64,000 nucleotides of DNA from Candidatus Woesearchaeota archaeon (GCA_964430545.1 CAYSFG010000033.1:6394-70393); one strand, 5' to 3'. Numbered from the stretch's first letter, positions 2,669-64,000 are shown. Notes: generated by a model not told the origin, from the letters alone. Numbers and translations: made by a program.

Positions 2669-2983
2669 TTAAGTCTTATAAGGTTGATTAATATCTTGCA
2701 GACTTATTTCATCAGCACTTATCTTTAATTCTTTAAGTTCTTCTTTTATATTATCTTTTGTTATTCCAATTTTATAATATTCTAATGAATAAAGCTGGCC
2801 ATAGCTTTCTATAAGGCGCCAGCCATGGCATTGTAGTTTAGTTACTATCACAGCAATATTATGTAAATGATCTCTTATAGTATCTCCATAATCTCTTATT
2901 ATAAATGGATCCACCTTTGATCTTCCTTCTATCGGCAATGCCCAGTTTGGTTTTCCATGTAACCATAAGTTTATTACTATCAT
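2669..2983 (-). CDS. Hypothetical protein (104 aa)
   Basis: ORF that overlaps the next ORF by 4 nt, giving a two-gene arrangement. Confidence 0.3.
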   Translation of the reverse strand: MIVINLWLHGKPNWALPIEGRSKVDPFIIRDYGDTIRDHLHNIAVIVTKLQCHGWRLIESYGQLYSLEYYKIGITKDNIKEELKELKISADEISLQDINQPYKT

Positions 2984-3177
2984 TTTTTATACTCCCAGAA
3001 CTCCTCTTCAAATTCTTTCATGTCTATTGCATCTAAGTCTATTTCTAGTGTTTCAAATTCATTTTCTTTTATATCTTTTTCATAATAACATAATGATTTA
3101 TACCATTCTTTATCATCATTTAGTTCATCCTCTTTTTTTATTTCTATTTTTTTATTTTCATAGTTTTCTTTTTTCAT
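2980..3177 (-). CDS. Hypothetical small acidic protein (65 aa)
   Basis: Highly acidic, and its stop overlaps the start of the downstream ORF by 4 nt. Possibly a small regulator or antitoxin-like partner. Confidence 0.3.
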   Translation of the reverse strand: MKKENYENKKIEIKKEDELNDDKEWYKSLCYYEKDIKENEFETLEIDLDAIDMKEFEEEFWEYKK

Positions 3178-17803: not shown

Positions 17804-17850
17804 TGAGGCTGCCCGGATTTGAACCGGGATCTCAAGGTCCCAAACCTCGG
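17804..17850 (-). tRNA. tRNA-Pro(UGG)-like 3' half (position 26 through 3' end) with no 5' half nearby; split-tRNA half or tRNA fragment
   Basis: Minus strand C CGAGG TTTGGGA CCTTG AGAT CCCGG TTCAAAT CCGGG CAGCCTC A is a perfect anticodon arm (anticodon TGG) plus T arm plus 3' acceptor strand. The complementary 5' acceptor GAGGCTG and a D arm are absent within about 400 nt on either side. Confidence 0.5.
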
Positions 17851-18197
17851 GTTCTAACCAAGTTATACTACAAATACAGTTCAAAGGCCAAAACCTATTG
17901 AATCCCCATTATATTAACTTGGGCCCAAATTATTGGATTATGAAGACTTAATAAAGTTTACTTTATGTAACTTATTTCATCAATAAACCTATTTACTCAA
18001 TTCATTTTAATTGTAAATCTAATATCTATTGTATGTTTGTTATCTTTATTTCTTCTTCTGAGGATTATTTAATTTAGTATTATAATTTTTTTTGATTTCA
18101 TTTTCTAATATTAATTATTAGGTTTATAAAATTCTATTGTGTAGTTGGTAAGATCATTTAATAATATAAGATATATTAATTTTAAAAAATGTTAAAT

Positions 18198-20251: not shown

Positions 20252-20977
20252 CTATTTTTTAGCTGTTGCTGCTGCTTTTGCTGCTGGTGTTTTTCCTGTT
20301 TCTGGTTTAGCTCCTGCTGTTGATGCTGTTCCAGGTGTTGCAGGTGCTCCAGCTGCTGCTTTTGCTGCTGCTTCAGCTTCAGCTGCTGCTTTTGCTGTTG
20401 CCTTTTCTTTGTCTCTAGTTTTCTTTTTTACTTCTAGATCTTGAGCCATTGTTATTAATTGTTTTTTCTTTTCTTCTGAAGGCTCTGTTTTTTCTGTTTT
20501 TATTTCATTGTCATATTTTCCTTCATCTACTTCCTTTAGAACTTGTATTGCATCTTTTCCATCTATCAGTATACCTGCAGATTGACAGCTTCCTAATACT
20601 GTTTTTACAGCCGCTTTTAGACTTTTAACTAATAATGCTGAACTTTTCATCTTTGCTATTTTTATAACCTGTTCAAATGATATTACGCCTGCTTTGTTTA
20701 TTTGTGGTTCTCCTGAACCTTTTTCTAAGTTTATTTCTTTGAATATTAATTGTGATACTGGTGGAGTTCCTATTGTTATTTCAAATGTTTTATCTTCTGT
20801 GTCTACTATGATTTTTACTGGTACTTTCATCCCTTTAAAGTCTTTAGTTTTTTCATTTATTTGAGTGACTACTTGACCTATATTTACTCTAAGTGGTCCA
20901 AGAGTTCCTCCAAGTGCTGCTCCTGCAACAGCTTTTCCACCATCAACCAATGCTTCAACTATAGTTTTCTTTCCCAT
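20252..20977 (-). CDS. rpl11: 50S ribosomal protein L11 (uL11) with an Ala/Lys/Pro-rich C-terminal tail of about 80 aa
   Basis: GGKAVAGAALGGTLGPLRVNIGQVV...TIGTPPVSQLI is the L11 core. Residues 160-241 are low-complexity KAAAEAEAAAKAAAGAPATPG...AAKAAATAKK. Confidence 0.85.
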   Translation of the reverse strand: MGKKTIVEALVDGGKAVAGAALGGTLGPLRVNIGQVVTQINEKTKDFKGMKVPVKIIVDTEDKTFEITIGTPPVSQLIFKEINLEKGSGEPQINKAGVISFEQVIKIAKMKSSALLVKSLKAAVKTVLGSCQSAGILIDGKDAIQVLKEVDEGKYDNEIKTEKTEPSEEKKKQLITMAQDLEVKKKTRDKEKATAKAAAEAEAAAKAAAGAPATPGTASTAGAKPETGKTPAAKAAATAKK

Positions 20978-34807: not shown

Positions 34808-35527
34808 ATGCAAATAAAAAATAATTTTATTCAGTTTAGATTAGTCAAGGAAGATAAAGAATATATTTATATTAAAGGAACTAGTGGTCCTGCTAAAGAA
34901 GTTAGAATATCCAAACATTTAACACCCGAACTTTATTTTTTAGCAGGAATAATTCTTGGCGATGGACATTTAGACAAAGATATAAAAAGAATTACATTAG
35001 AATTAACTGACAGAGAAAAATTAGAAAAGATTGCTACAATTTTTGAATTAGTATTTTCTTATACAAAAATAAAAATTGCAATTAGAACTGATAAAAGGGA
35101 AAATAGAAAAATAAGATTTTATTTTAATATAAATAATTCGCCAATATACCATTTATTCAACACTATCTTTGGAATACCTAAAGGAAAGAAAAGTGATATA
35201 ATAAAAGTGTCAAAATTTATTAAACAATCAAATTTAAAATTCAGAAAATATTTTCTTCTTGGAGTTTTTATAACAGACGGGGGGCGAAGACAAGGGGGTT
35301 TTGGTTTATCTACAGCTAGCAAAATATTTAGAGAAGATATATCTGAACTACTTTTTTCAATAGGAATTATACATTCAAAAGATAGTTGGATAAACAAAAA
35401 GTATAAAAAACCTTATTATGGTCTATCTTTTAGAAAAAAACAAATATACAATATGCAGGGGTACCAAAGTGGTCAAATGGGCCAGATTCTAGATTCTTTA
35501 TATGAGAAACTAGAAGGCTTAGCTTAG
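34808..35527 (+). CDS. LAGLIDADG-family homing endonuclease-like protein; its 3' end overlaps the 5' exon of the downstream tRNA
   Basis: Two LAGLIDADG motifs, FLAGIILGDGHL and LLGVFITDGGR. The ORF continues about 73 nt into the tRNA starting at 35455, so its true C-terminus is uncertain. Confidence 0.65.
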   Translation: MQIKNNFIQFRLVKEDKEYIYIKGTSGPAKEVRISKHLTPELYFLAGIILGDGHLDKDIKRITLELTDREKLEKIATIFELVFSYTKIKIAIRTDKRENRKIRFYFNINNSPIYHLFNTIFGIPKGKKSDIIKVSKFIKQSNLKFRKYFLLGVFITDGGRRQGGFGLSTASKIFREDISELLFSIGIIHSKDSWINKKYKKPYYGLSFRKKQIYNMQGYQSGQMGQILDSLYEKLEGLA

Positions 35528-35618
35528 GAAATCCTTAGGTGTTATGGGTGATTTTACACTACGATTTTATGACACCTGGTGGCTTAGGCCTTCGCAGGTT
35601 CGAATCCTGTCCCCTGCA
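35455..35618 (+). tRNA. Class II tRNA (Leu-like) carrying an intron of about 80 nt; anticodon unresolved
   Basis: Acceptor GCAGGGG/CCCCTGC (perfect), 3-bp D stem CCA/TGG with Leu-type D loop AAGTGGTCAAA, 3' anticodon strand CCTGG, 14-nt variable arm TGGCTTAGGCCTTC, T arm GCAGG-TTCGAAT-CCTGT, discriminator A. 164 nt against an expected 85. Confidence 0.65.
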
Positions 35619-53136: not shown

Positions 53137-53221
53137 AGCCCCTGGTGGAAATTGAATCCACAACCTCTTCCTCATTAGCATAAGTTACCAAGGAAGGACT
53201 CCACCATTAAGCTACAGGGGC
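53137..53221 (-). tRNA. tRNA-Thr (anticodon GGU) with a 13-nt canonical anticodon-loop intron
   Basis: Minus strand GCCCCTG TA GCTT AATGGTG GAGT C CTTCC TTGGTA [ACTTATGCTAATG] A GGAAG AGGTT GTGGA TTCAATT TCCAC CAGGGGC T. Confidence 0.75.
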
Positions 53222-58118: not shown

Positions 58119-58528
58119 TAATTTTTACCTCCATTTTTTTATATAGATAAACTGAATTCTATAATTTATATAATTTTCTATAAAAGTTTATCTATCTCTC
58201 AAAGAATTTGTTATAATTTAGTAATGGTTCGTCTGCTGGTTGATATTTGAATACTTCTTTAAATTTTTTAGAGATGTTATCTACTAATGGGTCAATGTAC
58301 ATTGGGAATATGAAGTGTGATAGTATTGTTTGCTTTGTCTTTTCTTTCTTCAGGTTTTAGCCCAAACAAGTCTAGGTTCTTCTTTATATATTCATAACGT
58401 CCTTTACTATCATAAATATCATTGTCCATTTTTATTTCACTCTCCTATTTTAGTTGAGTTGTTATAAATAGTCAAGTAAGATAATGCAAGATTCTGCATT
58501 GCAAAGATGTTAACGTATTCTCTCAGAA

Positions 58529-58650
58529 GTATGAATGCGGGGGACATTGACCATGCTGATAATCTAGCAACGCTAAGTGTCTTTAGTATGCCTTAATGTT
58601 TTAATAGATAAACTTATTTATATTGTCTTCTGTTATTCTTCTGGCTTAGT
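58529..58650. repeat. Left copy of a direct repeat of about 120 nt (partner at 62622..62735)
   Basis: GAATGCGGGGGACATTGACCATGCTGATAATCTAGCAACGCTAAGTGTCTTTAGTATGCCTTAAT...AAACTTATTTATATTGTCTTCTGTTATTC is near-identical to the copy at 62622, differing by 3-4 substitutions and one 12-nt variable spacer. Confidence 0.7.
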
Positions 58651-59080
58651 TTATTTTTTGTTTTATTTGATTTATTATTTCTCCTGAGCATTTATCCCAG
58701 AATTCTAAAATATTTTTAGCTTTCATTATGTCTACTTTGAATCCTCTATAATTTACGTCATGTCTTATTTTTTTGAATAGGAATAGATTGTTTAGTTGCA
58801 TTTTTTTTTTTATTTCCATTTCTTTTAGTATGTCCATGCTTACTTCATGATTTTTCGGTTCATATCCTAATAACCACCATTGTGCGTCTCCTAATTGTCT
58901 TATTGATTCGTATGTTTCTCTAAAGATTAGTGTTGCGCTTTCTTCGTTTAATGGTATCATTTTTACTATTTTAATGTTTATTTCTGCTATTTCTATCATT
59001 GATTTTATTTTATGTATATCTAGTTGTCTTGGTCTTAATTGTTTATCTTTTTCTAATAATTCTATTATCTCTTTCTTCAT
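58646..59080 (-). CDS. HEPN-domain protein (toxin of the second HEPN/MNT pair)
   Basis: Helical 144 aa protein immediately downstream of an MNT gene. Confidence 0.65.
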   Translation of the reverse strand: MKKEIIELLEKDKQLRPRQLDIHKIKSMIEIAEINIKIVKMIPLNEESATLIFRETYESIRQLGDAQWWLLGYEPKNHEVSMDILKEMEIKKKMQLNNLFLFKKIRHDVNYRGFKVDIMKAKNILEFWDKCSGEIINQIKQKIN

Positions 59081-59700
59081 GGTTTTACCTCTAGGAATCC
59101 TGATAATTTTATTCCATTTGCAATATTGTTGAATAAATTTATATCTATATTTTTTCTATTAAATATATGTACTTGTATTTTTCTTTTTATATGGTTTTCA
59201 ATATTTGTTATATACTCTAATTGTTCTTTTCTATTCGCTACTAATTGTCTTAATGATAGAACTTGATATCCTTCTTCTATTTTTTCTTCTGTTTCTATTG
59301 CTATATCTATGTCAGATTCTGATATATCTTCTCCTGTTCTAAAGCTTCCGAATAAGATTATTGTTTTTGGATTTCTGTAATAATCATTTAAGAATTCTAC
59401 TATTCCACTTTGATATAGATAGTTTAAATTAAATACTATTTTACTTCTTGTGAATAACCAGTTTTGTGTGTTTGCTCTTATTCTCCATATTTTTGTAAGT
59501 TTTGTTATGTTTATTATTTCTAATCTATAAAATTCTTCTAATATTTTTCCAACATTTGATTTTGGTACTTGTGCTTCTTCTGCTAAATCTGATAAGCTAT
59601 ATTCAATATCTGGATGCTTGAATAGTTCTTCGAGTATTTTATCTCTTCCATTTTTTTCAATTAAGTATTGTTCTCTTTTTAGAACTTTTGTTTTTTTCAT
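59077..59700 (-). CDS. Minimal nucleotidyltransferase with N-terminal HTH (antitoxin of the second pair)
   Basis: IILFGSFRTGEDISESDIDIAIE NTase motif. N-terminal DNA-binding region. Confidence 0.75.
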   Translation of the reverse strand: MKKTKVLKREQYLIEKNGRDKILEELFKHPDIEYSLSDLAEEAQVPKSNVGKILEEFYRLEIINITKLTKIWRIRANTQNWLFTRSKIVFNLNYLYQSGIVEFLNDYYRNPKTIILFGSFRTGEDISESDIDIAIETEEKIEEGYQVLSLRQLVANRKEQLEYITNIENHIKRKIQVHIFNRKNIDINLFNNIANGIKLSGFLEVKP

Positions 59701-59861
59701 ATAACTTATGTTCTATATATAGAACTATTTAAACATTTCGGTTGTTGTTAATTGATAGTAAGTGTTAGTAATATTAAATATTATCTTCTGTTATTTGTAA
59801 ACTATTTATTTAGTAATATCGATTAAGTCTTTGCATTTTTTCTTTGTTTGAGGGTCTTCTT

Positions 59862-61166
59862 TTATTCTAACAACCACTTCCATAATGGTATTATTTTTAT
59901 TGTTTTATTTTCTATTTTCTCTTCTTTGTAATCAGATTCATTTGTTATAATTATTCCTTTGTTTAGTTTAAAATGATTTAATGATGTTATTAATGAGTTT
60001 ATTTCTCTGTTTCTTGTTTCATTATTTGATAAGTTAGTGCATACTTGTATTATTGAAACTATTTTTTTACCTTCTTTCATTATGAAGTCTATTTCTTTAT
60101 CTTCTGTTGTTTTGAAATAGTTTATAGTAAGTAGTGGGTTTTTTTCTTTTTGTCTTAACAATTGTAGGAATACAGTATTTTCTAGTCTTTTTCCTTGTTC
60201 TTGAATTGAGAATAGGTTTAGGAAACTTATATCATCAAGATATATTTTTGGTATTGATAAACCGCTCTTCTTTTCAGAATTTTCGTATTTTCTTAGTGCG
60301 AAAATAAAGAATGAATCTTCGAAAATATTAAAATTATAATATAATGTGTTTTTGCTTATTTTAATTCCTTGTGATTTTAGGTTATTATATAGACTATTTA
60401 TGCTTAATTCTTTAGCTGTAGAGCTTATTAATGAATTCATTAACCATCTTATTATTTTTGTGTTTTTTAGGCTATACCTCTCGACTATATCTTTGTATAT
60501 TACAAGATCGAAATAATCTTTTACTATTTTCATTTTTTCATTCTTGTCATTTTCTAAAACTACTTCAGGATAGCCTCCGTATAGTAGATATTCTTCAAGG
60601 TAATTAAGTAATCTTGATTTTGTTTCTGTGTCTATTTTATTAATATCAAACTTGAATTTTTTGAAAGCTAAAAATTCTTTAAAAGATAATGGAAGTAGAA
60701 GATTTGTTATAGATCTTCCTCTTAATGATGTTGCTATTTCTTTGCTTAATAATTTTGATGATGATCCTGTTAAGAAAATTTGGCAATTGTATCTGTCATA
60801 AATATCTCTTATAGCAAGTTCCCATTTGTTTATTACTTGAGGTTCGTCTATGAATATGAAAAGTTTTTTCTTTATTATTTCTGGAAATATAGACCATTGG
60901 ACTTCTATTAATTCACTTATTTCTTTATATGATATATCACTTAAAATAGGGCTTTCAAAATTAAAATATAAAATCTGCTCTTTAAGTATTCCTGATTTTT
61001 CCAAATTTTGTATTTTATTAAATAATAAAGAAGTTTTACCAACCCTTCTAGCACCTATAACTGTCTGAATTTTATTAGATTCTTTAATTATTAATTCTCT
61101 GTCTATAAGATTGAATTCTCTTTTATTAAAATCCAATAAATAACGTTTTATCTTTTCTGTGTCCAT
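59862..61166 (-). CDS. AAA+ superfamily ATPase (COG1373; AAA_14 plus DUF4143)
   Basis: Walker A IGARRVGKTSLL, Walker B FIFIDEPQ. Architecture typical of archaeal DUF4143 ATPases. Confidence 0.75.
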   Translation of the reverse strand: MDTEKIKRYLLDFNKREFNLIDRELIIKESNKIQTVIGARRVGKTSLLFNKIQNLEKSGILKEQILYFNFESPILSDISYKEISELIEVQWSIFPEIIKKKLFIFIDEPQVINKWELAIRDIYDRYNCQIFLTGSSSKLLSKEIATSLRGRSITNLLLPLSFKEFLAFKKFKFDINKIDTETKSRLLNYLEEYLLYGGYPEVVLENDKNEKMKIVKDYFDLVIYKDIVERYSLKNTKIIRWLMNSLISSTAKELSINSLYNNLKSQGIKISKNTLYYNFNIFEDSFFIFALRKYENSEKKSGLSIPKIYLDDISFLNLFSIQEQGKRLENTVFLQLLRQKEKNPLLTINYFKTTEDKEIDFIMKEGKKIVSIIQVCTNLSNNETRNREINSLITSLNHFKLNKGIIITNESDYKEEKIENKTIKIIPLWKWLLE

Positions 61167-61443
61167 AACTATAATATAAACAAACTAATATATAAAAGTT
61201 TCCCTTTCAATAGGGAAAGAATAAACAAATGTTTCCTTATATATAGGGAAATTTAAAATAATCAGCCTATATCGTAAATGGGGTTAGCATATAAATAAAA
61301 ATGATATATCGTAAAATTGGTGAATATATAAAGAATAGTTCAATAGTATATAGTTACTATTAAGTGATAACCATACCGTAAGATTTATAAACTTAGTAAT
61401 TTTGCTAAAATAAGCTAAAAATTAACTAGAGAGAAAAACAAAA

Positions 61444-62340
61444 ATGGATACTCAAACTATTGATAGTGTAAGATATGCTTTAGGAAAAGCACATAGCGAA
61501 ATTTATGGTGCTACAATTATTAAAGAACCTGTAAAACCTTTTTATAAAACAGGAACTCATGGTGTTAGTGAAAGTTTAAGAAAATGTACTGATTCTGGTT
61601 ATAAACCTTTATTCATGCCTGAACTTGCTATTGCAAGAAGCAAAACAGATGGTGATTCAATGTTATGGAAAGATTGGTTTTTAACAACAAGTATTATAGC
61701 TACAGGAAGAACAAAAGGGGGAAATCCTGTTGTAGTTTATGCTCACGTACAGAATCCTTTTAATAATCCAGACAATATAAGAAATGCAGTAAATGGAACA
61801 GAAGGAAGAAAAATTGTTAATGGTGCTGGAACATTAACTAATGAAGAATTTTATCAATTACTAGACCAGCAAGGAAATGGAAGAGTTTTCGTTGTAGACT
61901 ATGATAAACTAGAAAGTTCAACAAGTGGGATTATAAAAGTTAAAGATGCTTTAGAACATCCACAAACAATACCCTTCTTAGGAAGCAAAGAAATAGCAGA
62001 AGCTTATATTGATAGATATCAAAAAGTTCATGATAAAAATATTGGAGTATGGTATTATGATGATTTAGGAGAAGAACCAAGGGCTCGTTTGCTCTGTGCT
62101 GGCAGCAGCGTCAACGGCGGCTTGTTCAGCAGCTGCAGCCTTGACTACAGCGGTCGTGTCCTCGGGGTTGCGCCGGAGGCGCAGTGCGTCGAAAAAAAAG
62201 TAGTAGATGAACCTAAAGCAGAACCTCTTGAAGCTAGAGTAAGTGGGCCTAGTGTAGAATTATTAAATGATGGAAGACTTGTTAGAGTTGGTGGAATTAT
62301 TTATGTTCGTGCAGAAGGTTTAGAATTAAGATCGCAATAA
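61444..62340 (+). CDS. Hypothetical protein with atypical composition, containing a 120-bp block of about 65% GC
   Basis: Low K/I/N content compared with neighbours. Nucleotides 62085-62205 (PRARLLCAGSSVNGGLFSSCSLDYSGRVLGVAPEAQCVE) are strongly GC-rich. Confidence 0.5.
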   Translation: MDTQTIDSVRYALGKAHSEIYGATIIKEPVKPFYKTGTHGVSESLRKCTDSGYKPLFMPELAIARSKTDGDSMLWKDWFLTTSIIATGRTKGGNPVVVYAHVQNPFNNPDNIRNAVNGTEGRKIVNGAGTLTNEEFYQLLDQQGNGRVFVVDYDKLESSTSGIIKVKDALEHPQTIPFLGSKEIAEAYIDRYQKVHDKNIGVWYYDDLGEEPRARLLCAGSSVNGGLFSSCSLDYSGRVLGVAPEAQCVEKKVVDEPKAEPLEARVSGPSVELLNDGRLVRVGGIIYVRAEGLELRSQ

Positions 62341-62621
62341 ACAAACTTTTTTATACTATTTATTTTTATTATTTTCTTTGTCCCAGCTATTCTAAAAACT
62401 TTACAATATAGTAAAGTGTTAATGGAGTAGTTTGGATCTACACGCATTTTCATTAAGACAACAATAGTTGTTATAAAATACAGCCTTGACAGAAATGAAA
62501 AATTTATTCCATTATTCTTAATATTCTAACCATTCTATAACTAGAAGATTATTTAAAATAATAAAACTAATATAATATTAGGCATCAGAATAAACGTCAG
62601 GCATTCACCATATTAATAGTA

Positions 62622-62735
62622 TATGGAATGCGGGGAACATTGACCATGCTGATAATCTAGCTACTCTAAGTGTCTTTAGTATGCCTTAATAGTATAATGT
62701 TAAACTTATTTATATTGTCTTCTGTTATTCGTCTG
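62622..62735. repeat. Right copy of the direct repeat of about 120 nt (partner at 58529..58650)
   Basis: See the left copy. Confidence 0.7.
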
Positions 62736-62775
62736 ACTCTTCTTCTACTTCAATTGATTTTGATTTCTTTTCTTT

Positions 62776-63027
62776 CTAAGAATTCTTTGGCTGCTCTGAT
62801 TTTCTTTGATGATCTTCTTTGTCGTTTATTATTTTTTTAAGCAAGTCTAAATGCTTTTGATAATATTTTTCTCTTATTTCTATTGCTTCTTCTAATAATT
62901 CTCTTATTGTTGTTGATAGGTCTTTTTGTTCTAACTTTGCTAATCTTTCTAGTTTAGTTAATAGTTCATCATCTAACCTAAACATTTTTCTTTCCTTTTT
63001 CTTCTTGGGCTTTTCTTTGTAGATCAT
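62776..63027 (-). CDS. Ribbon-helix-helix (CopG/Arc-like) DNA-binding protein
   Basis: KMFRLDDELLTKLERLAKLEQKDLSTTIRELLEEAI is an RHH beta-strand plus two helices. Confidence 0.5.
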   Translation of the reverse strand: MIYKEKPKKKKERKMFRLDDELLTKLERLAKLEQKDLSTTIRELLEEAIEIREKYYQKHLDLLKKIINDKEDHQRKSEQPKNS

Positions 63028-63409
63028 TGTAGTCCCCCATTACATTTTTGCAGTTTGTATTTATATTCTCTAGTACATGTTTTGTACATACTTTTAAATT
63101 TTGTAGGATATTCTAGCCGTAATTTATCTAATTTGATTTTTGTTTTCATATTTTATTATTTTGATTTACTGCTATTTAAGTCTTGTACGTCTCTTGTGCG
63201 TAAACCTATATTGTAGAATTTATTTATAAATTTTGTAGTCCTTTCGTAGCCACAGACTGAGTTTTTGTTCATAATTCTATTATTTGTATTAAGTAGTATA
63301 TAAGTAGCGAGTTAATGTTATACACTAAAAAGTGTAAGAGATGTACAAAATGTATGTTGTCATGTCTAAAAAGTATGTGGCGCTTACTTAAATAAGAATT
63401 ATTTGTAAA

Positions 63410-63706
63410 CTATTTCTTTTGCATGATTTCTTTTGTTTTTATTATTATTTCTTTTGCTAAGTTTGTAATCTCTTTATATAGTGATTCTTTTAATTTGATC
63501 TCTACTCCATATTGATAATGTTCTCTTATTCCTACTATAGTGTTTTCTTTATCTTCTGTGTTTATTGAATATATTTTATCTAATATTTCCTTCTCAAGAT
63601 CTATCTTGTTTTCTTCTATTAAACTATTGATTAATGCGAAAGTACATTCTTGATTTCTTGATTCATATCCATATTTTATTGCTATTGCTAATAAACATTG
63701 GTACAT
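63410..63706 (-). CDS. HEPN-like protein, possibly N-terminally disrupted (third TA-like locus)
   Basis: Upstream in the same frame the sequence reads MSQTKNKVEWCLRKAEK*IQEGKIHKGLVIVKPDIRKAEDHIKKAEHYL... with an in-frame TAA. An upstream minus-strand ORF fragment ends ...GTEEFVELIKNEPNKE and overlaps as ATGA. Confidence 0.4.
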   Translation of the reverse strand: MYQCLLAIAIKYGYESRNQECTFALINSLIEENKIDLEKEILDKIYSINTEDKENTIVGIREHYQYGVEIKLKESLYKEITNLAKEIIIKTKEIMQKK

Positions 63707-64000
63707 TGAATAAAATATTGTGCTTGTGCTTATGTCTGGAAAGTTTCCTTTTTTTAGATAATCTGTTGCTGATAAATAATGCTCTGCTTTTTTAATATGA
63801 TCCTCTGCTTTCCTTATATCGGGTTTTACTATTACAAGTCCTTTATGTATTTTACCTTCTTGTATTTATTTTTCTGCTTTTCTTAGGCACCATTCAACTT
63901 TATTCTTTGTTTGGCTCATTTTTGATCAACTCCACAAATTCTTCTGTACCTGTAATAACTATCCCTTTTATAATATTTATTATTACAGAATCATTTTTGT

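Follow-up and report, generated by a model that had tools for sequence, protein, structure and literature searches.

In the 64,000-nt stretch of Candidatus Woesearchaeota archaeon DNA analysed here (CAYSFG010000033.1:6394-70393, hereafter the window), two direct copies of a 114-nt repeat, X1 and X2, stand beside toxin-antitoxin (TA) and defence genes, and this repeat, called X below, is a modest but real feature that is best read as a module-boundary repeat. The explanation we favour, to which we give a probability of roughly 40%, is that X is the junction or landing-pad sequence of TA/defence modules acquired serially in an islet. The mechanism and the direction of the events, as we infer them, would be as follows. 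The islet would have grown on both sides of a native target gene of a diversity-generating retroelement (DGR) in a DPANN chromosome, and modules led by a minimal nucleotidyltransferase (MNT) gene would have been inserted, or swapped, at an X-like site that was there before, with duplication of its tail, via a recombinase acting in trans or via short-homology recombination. The X copies would then mark several small insertions, as att-like scars or landing pads, and would not be the ends of one 4.1-kb element.

Several observations support this explanation. The cargo of the islet is unrelated (its two nucleotidyltransferases, MNT1 and MNT2, share 25% identity), while the X copies are 91% identical and a palindrome, P, is identical at 29 of 29 positions in its two copies. 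The homology of the MNT1-HEPN1 gene pair to its relatives ends at X1, and the tail core of X recurs at module edges. The DGR target genes of relatives stand without such modules, and at the locus of the closest full-length homologue, L018, the homology with the window stops before X2. Besides, coding sequence, integron attC site, DGR repeat pair, known RNA and stable fold all failed as accounts of X.

Copies, anatomy and limits of the repeat

The two copies and the core motif of their tails are located as follows.

58533-58646, no strand assigned: repeat copy X1, with core at 58533-58597, A+T-rich patch at 58598-58608 and tail at 58609-58645 (plus strand)
62626-62738, no strand assigned: repeat copy X2, in the same orientation as X1, 91% identity
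58620-58637, minus strand: tail core motif B inside X1, AATAACAGAAGACAATAT, 18 nt, overlapping the TATA-like AATATAAATA
62712-62729, minus strand: tail core motif B inside X2, the identical 18-nt tail core

The original prediction, a reading of the DNA sequence alone, had pointed out direct repeats of about 120 nt, and these are real: by blastn, X1 and X2 are direct repeats with 91.2% identity over 114 nt (E ~1e-41), and no further full copy of X occurs in the window. The core (65-73 nt) is 92% identical between the copies and the tail (37 nt) about 95%, with an A+T-rich patch of 10-11 nt between them. This anatomy is close to the core, variable spacer and tail described before, but the idea of the spacer as a replaced segment fell away, since the patch can be roughly aligned between X1 and X2 (by eye) given 2-3 single-base indels. 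It is a slippage- or indel-prone stretch, not a replaced spacer. In addition to the 2-3 indels in the patch, the copies differ by the substitutions G/A, A/T, G/T, T/G and G/A.

In the 200 nt on either side of X1 and X2, similarity is no higher than in shuffled controls. Both outer limits of X are therefore sharp, and an extended duplication around X is ruled out by the unalignable flanks. Each copy lies 3' of a minus-strand gene, as had been noticed: X1 starts at the base past the stop codon (58646-58648) of the 144-aa gene HEPN1, and X2 ends 37 nt from the TAG (62776) of a ribbon-helix-helix (RHH) gene. Both copies are intergenic and their longest reading frame has 38 codons. Upstream of X2 there is a GCATTC (62601-62606) and upstream of X1 a weaker hexamer, GTATTC (58515-58520), both able to pair with the GAATGC at the start of the core.

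With such limits, X might belong to a family of short repeats dispersed over the whole genome, like miniature inverted-repeat transposable elements or repetitive extragenic palindromic sequences, two copies of which would lie 4 kb apart by chance. Its small size (114 nt), sharp ends and unrelated flanks agree with such a family, as do its termini, which are imperfectly complementary (GAATGCGGGGGACA vs GAATAACAGAAGACA) with mismatches that are all G/A transitions, and a density of ~30 copies per Mb would give two copies in 64 kb. However, the only two full copies in 64 kb lie in one 6-kb islet and both abut TA gene ends, no target-site duplication is visible in their flanks, and exact 19-20-mers of X occur nowhere in 185,579 GTDB species genomes, JGI metagenome contigs or IMG/VR. 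The exact-pattern scans returned just unrelated Na/Pi-transporter genes and chance matches, and BLAST of X against phage and plasmid collections gave no match. We hold a dispersed repeat to be unlikely.

TA and defence genes of the islet

The DGR target gene is flanked on its two sides by these minus-strand genes.

58646-59080, minus strand: HEPN1, 144-aa protein with a HEPN fold, belonging to a large DPANN family; its PADLOC match, PDC-M05B, is weak
59077-59700, minus strand: MNT1, minimal nucleotidyltransferase of 207 aa, Pfam NTP_transf_2/Polbeta, PADLOC PDC-M05A
59862-61166, minus strand: ATPase with AAA_14 and DUF4143, PADLOC candidate defence gene PDC-S01 (E 6e-98)
62776-63027, minus strand: RHH (CopG-like) gene
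63410-63919, minus strand: HEPN2, with an in-frame TAA after codon 17; read through, Pfam HEPN at E 1e-4
63900-64000, minus strand: 3' end of MNT2, which runs off the window and is complete in Logan contig L008 (118-720, 200 aa)

A HEPN/MNT pair and a DUF4143 AAA+ ATPase had been named in the interval, and both identifications stand: MNT1 is recognised by Pfam, the HEPN fold by AlphaFold and Foldseek, and the ATPase by its AAA_14 and DUF4143 domains. HEPN1 has no match in Pfam and no sequence match in the PDB. The top Foldseek matches of its AlphaFold model (predicted local distance difference test score, pLDDT, 95.5) are HEPN structures, namely 2hsb, 1ufb, the HEPN of sacsin and HEPN toxins including MNT-HEPN. 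The family has 487 homologue matches, in DPANN, and its invariant columns read as R-x-D-x-N-Y; the HEPN RNase motif is R-x4-6-H.

The MNT1 and HEPN1 genes overlap by 4 nt, and in the PADLOC candidate system PDC-M05 the match is strong for MNT1 (E 2e-13) and weak for HEPN1 (E 0.003). The pair thus consists of a nucleotidyltransferase gene overlapping a gene whose HEPN fold comes from structure prediction and Foldseek, which places it among MNT-HEPN systems. It resembles type VII MNT-HEPN (MntA-HepT) and PDC-M05 in the 4-nt gene overlap and in having a second pair next door, and differs in that HEPN1, a predicted toxin, belongs to a family that Pfam misses and that carries the R-x-D-x-N-Y motif. 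Systems of this kind are not known to include an RNA element. MNT1 probably has an N-terminal winged helix-turn-helix fusion, judging from its paralogue MNT2.

The second pair (MNT2 and HEPN2) spans positions 118-1210 of L008. With its in-frame TAA, HEPN2 is either a pseudogene or read through. The frame of the RHH gene remains open for 16 codons past its TAG, up to a TAA at 62725-62727 inside X2, for which a recent nonsense mutation or readthrough of the stop codon may be the reason. A 41-aa ORF (open reading frame) sits among the minus-strand genes right of X2, beside the RHH gene.

Module limits and recurrence of the tail core

The limits of the modules and the further short repeats at their edges are these.

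58646-59754, minus strand: MNT1-HEPN1 module, promoter to stop codon, as delimited by three relatives with different flanks (83% DNA identity)
59778-59795, minus strand: B', third and partial tail core, AATAACAGAAGATAATAT, 1 mismatch, between the AAA stop codon and MNT1
61199-61227, no strand assigned: palindrome P (copy P1), TTTCCCTTTCAATAGGGAAA + GAATAAACA, directly upstream of the AAA promoter

The MNT-HEPN genes of the three relatives share 88-90% protein identity and 83% DNA identity with those of the window and lie in different contexts. The homology begins ~40-54 nt upstream of the MNT start codon and extends as far as the HEPN stop codon; its 3' limit falls at, or within 7 nt of, the first base of X1. 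Neither X nor the tail core motif stands beside the module in the three relatives, and therefore X belongs to the site, not to the module.

At the other edge, B' precedes the 5' limit of the MNT1-HEPN1 module by 23 nt, so that B' and X1 together bracket it. It turned out that the window has three exact matches to the pattern TAACAGAARAYWATAT, where chance would give 0.25, and that all three lie on the minus strand between 58.6 and 62.7 kb. A degenerate fourth copy of the tail core, B'', lies between P2, the second copy of P, and MNT2. Besides, a 21-nt match (95%) between 59791-59811 and 63399-63419 shows that the 3' end of HEPN2, with its flank, has a copy between AAA and MNT1, directly adjoining B', a sign of a fossil of an earlier junction made up of a gene end and a tail core.

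P2 carries the same 29 nt (29/29) at positions 1-29 of L008, upstream of MNT2 and past the end of the window, corresponding to ~64590-64619. Exactly at P2 three Logan contigs stop, which implies a shared sequence that extends further right. A second hairpin lies next to P1, at 61233-61252. P may serve as an operator, or it may form the units' other end.

Taken in this way, the islet can be described as two units on the minus strand. Unit A reads P1, AAA, the HEPN2-like 3' remnant, B', MNT1, HEPN1 and X1, while unit B reads P2, B'', MNT2, the interrupted HEPN2, the 41-aa ORF, RHH and X2. They have the same orientation, their noncoding ends (P, X and the tail core) are the sole parts that they share, and the DGR target gene is placed between them on the opposite strand. 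The repeats follow each other in the interleaved order X1-P1-X2-P2.

Such an arrangement might also come from a family of undescribed non-autonomous cargo elements in DPANN, of which P (plus the tail core) and X would be the two ends. Unit A (~2.7 kb) and unit B (~2.0 kb) would then be two elements in the same orientation that carry different TA/defence cargo and flank the DGR target gene, a recombinase encoded elsewhere would move or exchange the cargo, and the site would be neither attC nor of the tRNA type of att. We consider this improbable.

The junctions also bear on the proposal that X1 and X2 are attL and attR of a single 4.1-kb element carrying the TA pair, the ATPase and the odd ORF. 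Direct repeats, sharp limits, a length typical of att sites that copy a target, and cargo of the defence type are all found, and ~100-nt direct repeats with sharp limits around TA/defence genes, with a shorter core at internal junctions, resemble attL/attR islets. However, the single cassette found no support in the analysis. The interval is a mosaic of separately bounded pieces with internal junctions and an extra partial tail copy, the bracketed DNA holds several independent modules and a native DGR target gene whose own flanks are conserved (61380-62489), and the X1-P1-X2-P2 interleaving is not produced by one insertion. Neither between the X copies, where its absence had been noted already, nor in any other ORF scanned is there an integrase. 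X is not a piece of any gene that would need restoration, be it for a tRNA, a known RNA or a protein, and its copies are 91% identical, not 100%. A single element is the worst fit and the least probable of the explanations considered here. Among the options offered originally, the junction evidence suggests that 'recombination hotspot' comes nearest.

The ORF of unusual composition is a DGR target gene

The gene between the two units and its parts are located as follows.

61444-62340, plus strand: AvpA-family DGR variable protein with C-type lectin fold, 298 aa (ORF298)
62083-62160, plus strand: DGR variable region, a run of NNC codons in family-variable columns
62161-62184, plus strand: CGGGGT resembling a site for the initiation of mutagenic homing (IMH), then the hairpin GCGCC-GGA-GGCGC (GRA trinucleotide loop), inside the gene
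62341-62489, plus strand: 3' noncoding flank of ORF298, conserved with the locus of L018, the closest homologue

This ORF had been taken as foreign for its composition. The anomaly exists and is local, with 60-67% G+C at ~62070-62200 vs ~25% for the window; the foreign origin was not borne out, the ORF being a native DGR target of the AvpA type. ORF298 matches PDB 5IOO (AvpA) by phmmer with E 7e-55 over residues 29-248, and its family profile does so with E 1.7e-102. More than 130 homologues with 36-60% identity are found in DPANN genomes, and in relatives they lie among genes for ribosomal proteins, eIF2-alpha, proteasome ATPase and RNA ligase, with no TA modules there. Judged by these homologues and their neighbours, ORF298 is a native DPANN chromosomal gene, not a foreign one.

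The G+C-rich patch is the variable region together with the IMH-like motif and the GGA-loop hairpin; the motif and the hairpin themselves occupy 62163-62182. The NNC run (62095-62150) reads AGC AGC GTC AAC GGC GGC TTG TTC AGC AGC TGC AGC CTT GAC TAC AGC. AvpA is the C-type-lectin-fold variable protein of nanoarchaeal DGRs (PMC5006420), which have a TGGGGT-type IMH and a GRA-loop hairpin inside the gene (PMC4372165), and the variable region, IMH and hairpin of ORF298 match the descriptions in both papers.

No template repeat for ORF298 was found in the 64 kb, where neither a second copy of the invariant flank of the variable region nor an AAC-rich repeat occurs, and no ORF of at least 200 aa in the 64 kb has an RT-like (reverse transcriptase-like) YxDD plus a GxxxSQ motif. 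In L018 (60% identity), the stop codon is followed ~215 nt further on by an AAC-rich template repeat of textbook form. ORF298 is therefore a DGR target of the orphan or remote type, as is the homologue L017. At the DNA level, L018 and the window are homologous from within the gene up to 62489, which is 150 nt beyond the stop codon. The homology breaks 136 nt before X2, and the template repeat of L018 lies ~65 nt beyond the break point.

A relative of ORF298 with 93% identity (P0001) is found on a 21,632-nt NCBI contig, where it is cut at residue 203, ~ten codons before the variable region; it is a paralogue or a sister-strain allele, and its contig probably stops at the hypervariable stretch. 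At 62215, likewise at the variable region, Logan contig L008 comes to its end. The breaks of L008 and P0001 fit population hypervariability at the variable region and are no proof of it.

The vicinity of ORF298 brings up the possibility that X1 and X2 are themselves a template/variable pair. They do resemble one (PMC4372165, PMC5006420) in being ~114-nt repeats with ~90% identity beside a bona fide DGR variable-protein gene, and X2 is located about where L018 holds its template repeat. This was rejected: the mismatches are not adenine-only in either strand or copy, indels are present, neither copy is contained in a protein gene's 3' part, and the window is without an RT. Besides, X is A+T-rich, noncoding and unrelated to the variable region of the ORF at 61444-62340. 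X as the spacer that precedes the template repeat in L018 was rejected likewise, the similarity being not above shuffles.

Further candidate identities of X

A coding role was rejected for X. The peptide of its best frame (38 codons) has no match in Pfam or among 5.8 billion proteins. The plus-strand frame of the core reads ...NAG(D/N)IDHADNLATLSVFSMP followed by a stop codon, and two of its three substitutions are synonymous. A 20-mer from the core matches the C-terminus of the PhoU domain (ERISDHADNLG...) of an Anaerolineae Na/Pi cotransporter. This match was dismissed because one 20-mer match in 596 Gb is the chance expectation, and a gene 3'-end fragment was rejected since Pfam PhoU misses the X peptide yet detects the control.

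Integron attC sites were considered because archaeal integrons with TA cassettes exist (PMC9668308). X resembles the cassettes of archaeal clusters of attC sites lacking integron-integrases (CALINs, PMC9668308) in that a site-like repeat stands directly 3' of each module, TA cargo is typical of them, and the copies are more similar within one genome than between genomes. X differs from them in lacking the defining imperfect hairpin and the paired R''/R' cores, and its modules have their own promoters. Folded as DNA, both strands of X1 and X2 give -4.3 to -7.2 kcal/mol (z +0.2 to +0.9 vs shuffles). No pair of attC cores (RYYYAAC...GTTRRRY) occurs on either strand of X1, and X2 has a lone self-complementary GTTAAAC with no partner 50-150 nt away. 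No integrase domain of an integron integrase (IntI) is present among the ORFs scanned.

X is not a tRNA, a tmRNA or a member of any Rfam family, the covariance models of Rfam 15 giving no match at E<=10 over 58400-58750. A structured 3'-UTR (untranslated region) or small RNA had been among the original options, and it finds no backing in the folding of X, which as RNA or DNA and on both strands is not better than in shuffles (z -0.6 to +1.1). With only two copies, covariation in X has no power to be assessed. A C/D-box or guide-RNA reading of the 'variable spacer' was rejected as well, with no box motifs seen by eye and a patch that aligns with indels. A promoter matrix built on 49 window genes gave TATA-like matches in X on both strands at background frequency, which speaks neither for nor against a promoter in X.

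A functional cis element, or a small noncoding RNA gene in two paralogous copies, is an explanation that these results touch directly. In its minus-strand version the tail would be a promoter (an upstream motif plus the TATA-like AATATAAATA), the patch the unconstrained gap between TATA and start, and the core a transcript of ~60-90 nt. By our own count, a start site 23 nt after the TATA-like box would fall at the core edge, a spacing equal to the median TATA-to-ATG distance of this genome's leaderless genes, and the tail core recurs upstream of each MNT gene, which would suit a promoter or operator shared by the two. In its plus-strand version an RNA of ~140-165 nt would run from a TATA-like box upstream of X to T-runs just past the tail, with its 3' end antisense to that of the TA operon; in both copies, X is followed by T-runs on the plus strand, and the plus-strand helices use G-U pairs. 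For either version, conserved blocks separated by a variable patch of conserved length are as expected.

However, the folding energies and the Rfam search speak against such an RNA, two substitutions disrupt predicted pairs (fold inspected by eye), and TATA-like matches this strong occur at 0.6-0.8% of positions in a 25% G+C genome and on both strands of X. X is also missing downstream of the orthologous MNT-HEPN modules in relatives. A functional element is thus unlikely, ranking ahead of the dispersed repeat.

Points against the junction reading

The observations that weigh against X as a junction or landing-pad sequence are gathered here. No recombinase or transposase was found in the ORFs scanned, and the flanks of X show no target-site duplication. 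No empty-site allele was seen: the two Logan samples with the organism both show the occupied arrangement. An identity of 91%, not 100%, means that the event is not recent or that the copies were selectively kept, and copies kept by selection would favour a functional element instead. The B' and B'' matches are short, A+T-rich and noticed post hoc, and the right end of unit B is beyond the window.

The ends of Logan contigs at 58454/58461, 61228 and 62215 were examined as evidence of a polymorphic insertion and rejected as ambiguous. For the end at 61228 the repeated palindrome offers an explanation, for that at 62215 the hypervariable region does, and the 6-nt Logan gap at 58455-58460 resembles a small polymorphism.

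Genomic context and biological meaning

The window (~25% G+C) comes from a DPANN-type archaeal chromosome and encodes TFIIB, Orc1/Cdc6, FtsZ, tRNA-splicing endonuclease, diphthamide synthase and an archaeal-type GlyRS. The homologues of its genes are labelled Woesearchaeota, Nanoarchaeota or Pacearchaeota by their sources. Rfam gives three tRNAs at gathering threshold (17804-17877, 35455-35618 and 53137-53221), and ARAGORN none; one of the three has a ~90-nt insertion, probably an intron. An ORF with a LAGLIDADG domain (34808-35527) overlaps the 5' end of the tRNA match at 35455. The sole other G+C-rich spot in the window is a low-complexity array of the GCTGCTGCT type at 20268-20431, in the minus-strand ORF 20252-20977. 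On the minus strand at 2669-3177 there is an operon of two overlapping genes (65 aa and 104 aa) with no Pfam match, whose coding sequence holds a chance near-match to the tail core (ITKDNI).

In conclusion, the outcome mainly corrects the earlier view: what looked like a 'foreign cassette' is a native DGR target flanked by ordinary selfish TA/defence modules, with X as their junction or flank sequence. We know of no account of how TA/defence modules move in tiny DPANN genomes, in which obvious integrases are often missing. If it is true that P, the tail core and X are recognition sites, they would point to a cassette-exchange mechanism and the finding would gain greater significance. Besides, ORF298 has lost, or stands apart from, its template repeat and RT exactly where the TA modules lie, which bears on the origin of 'orphan' variable genes.

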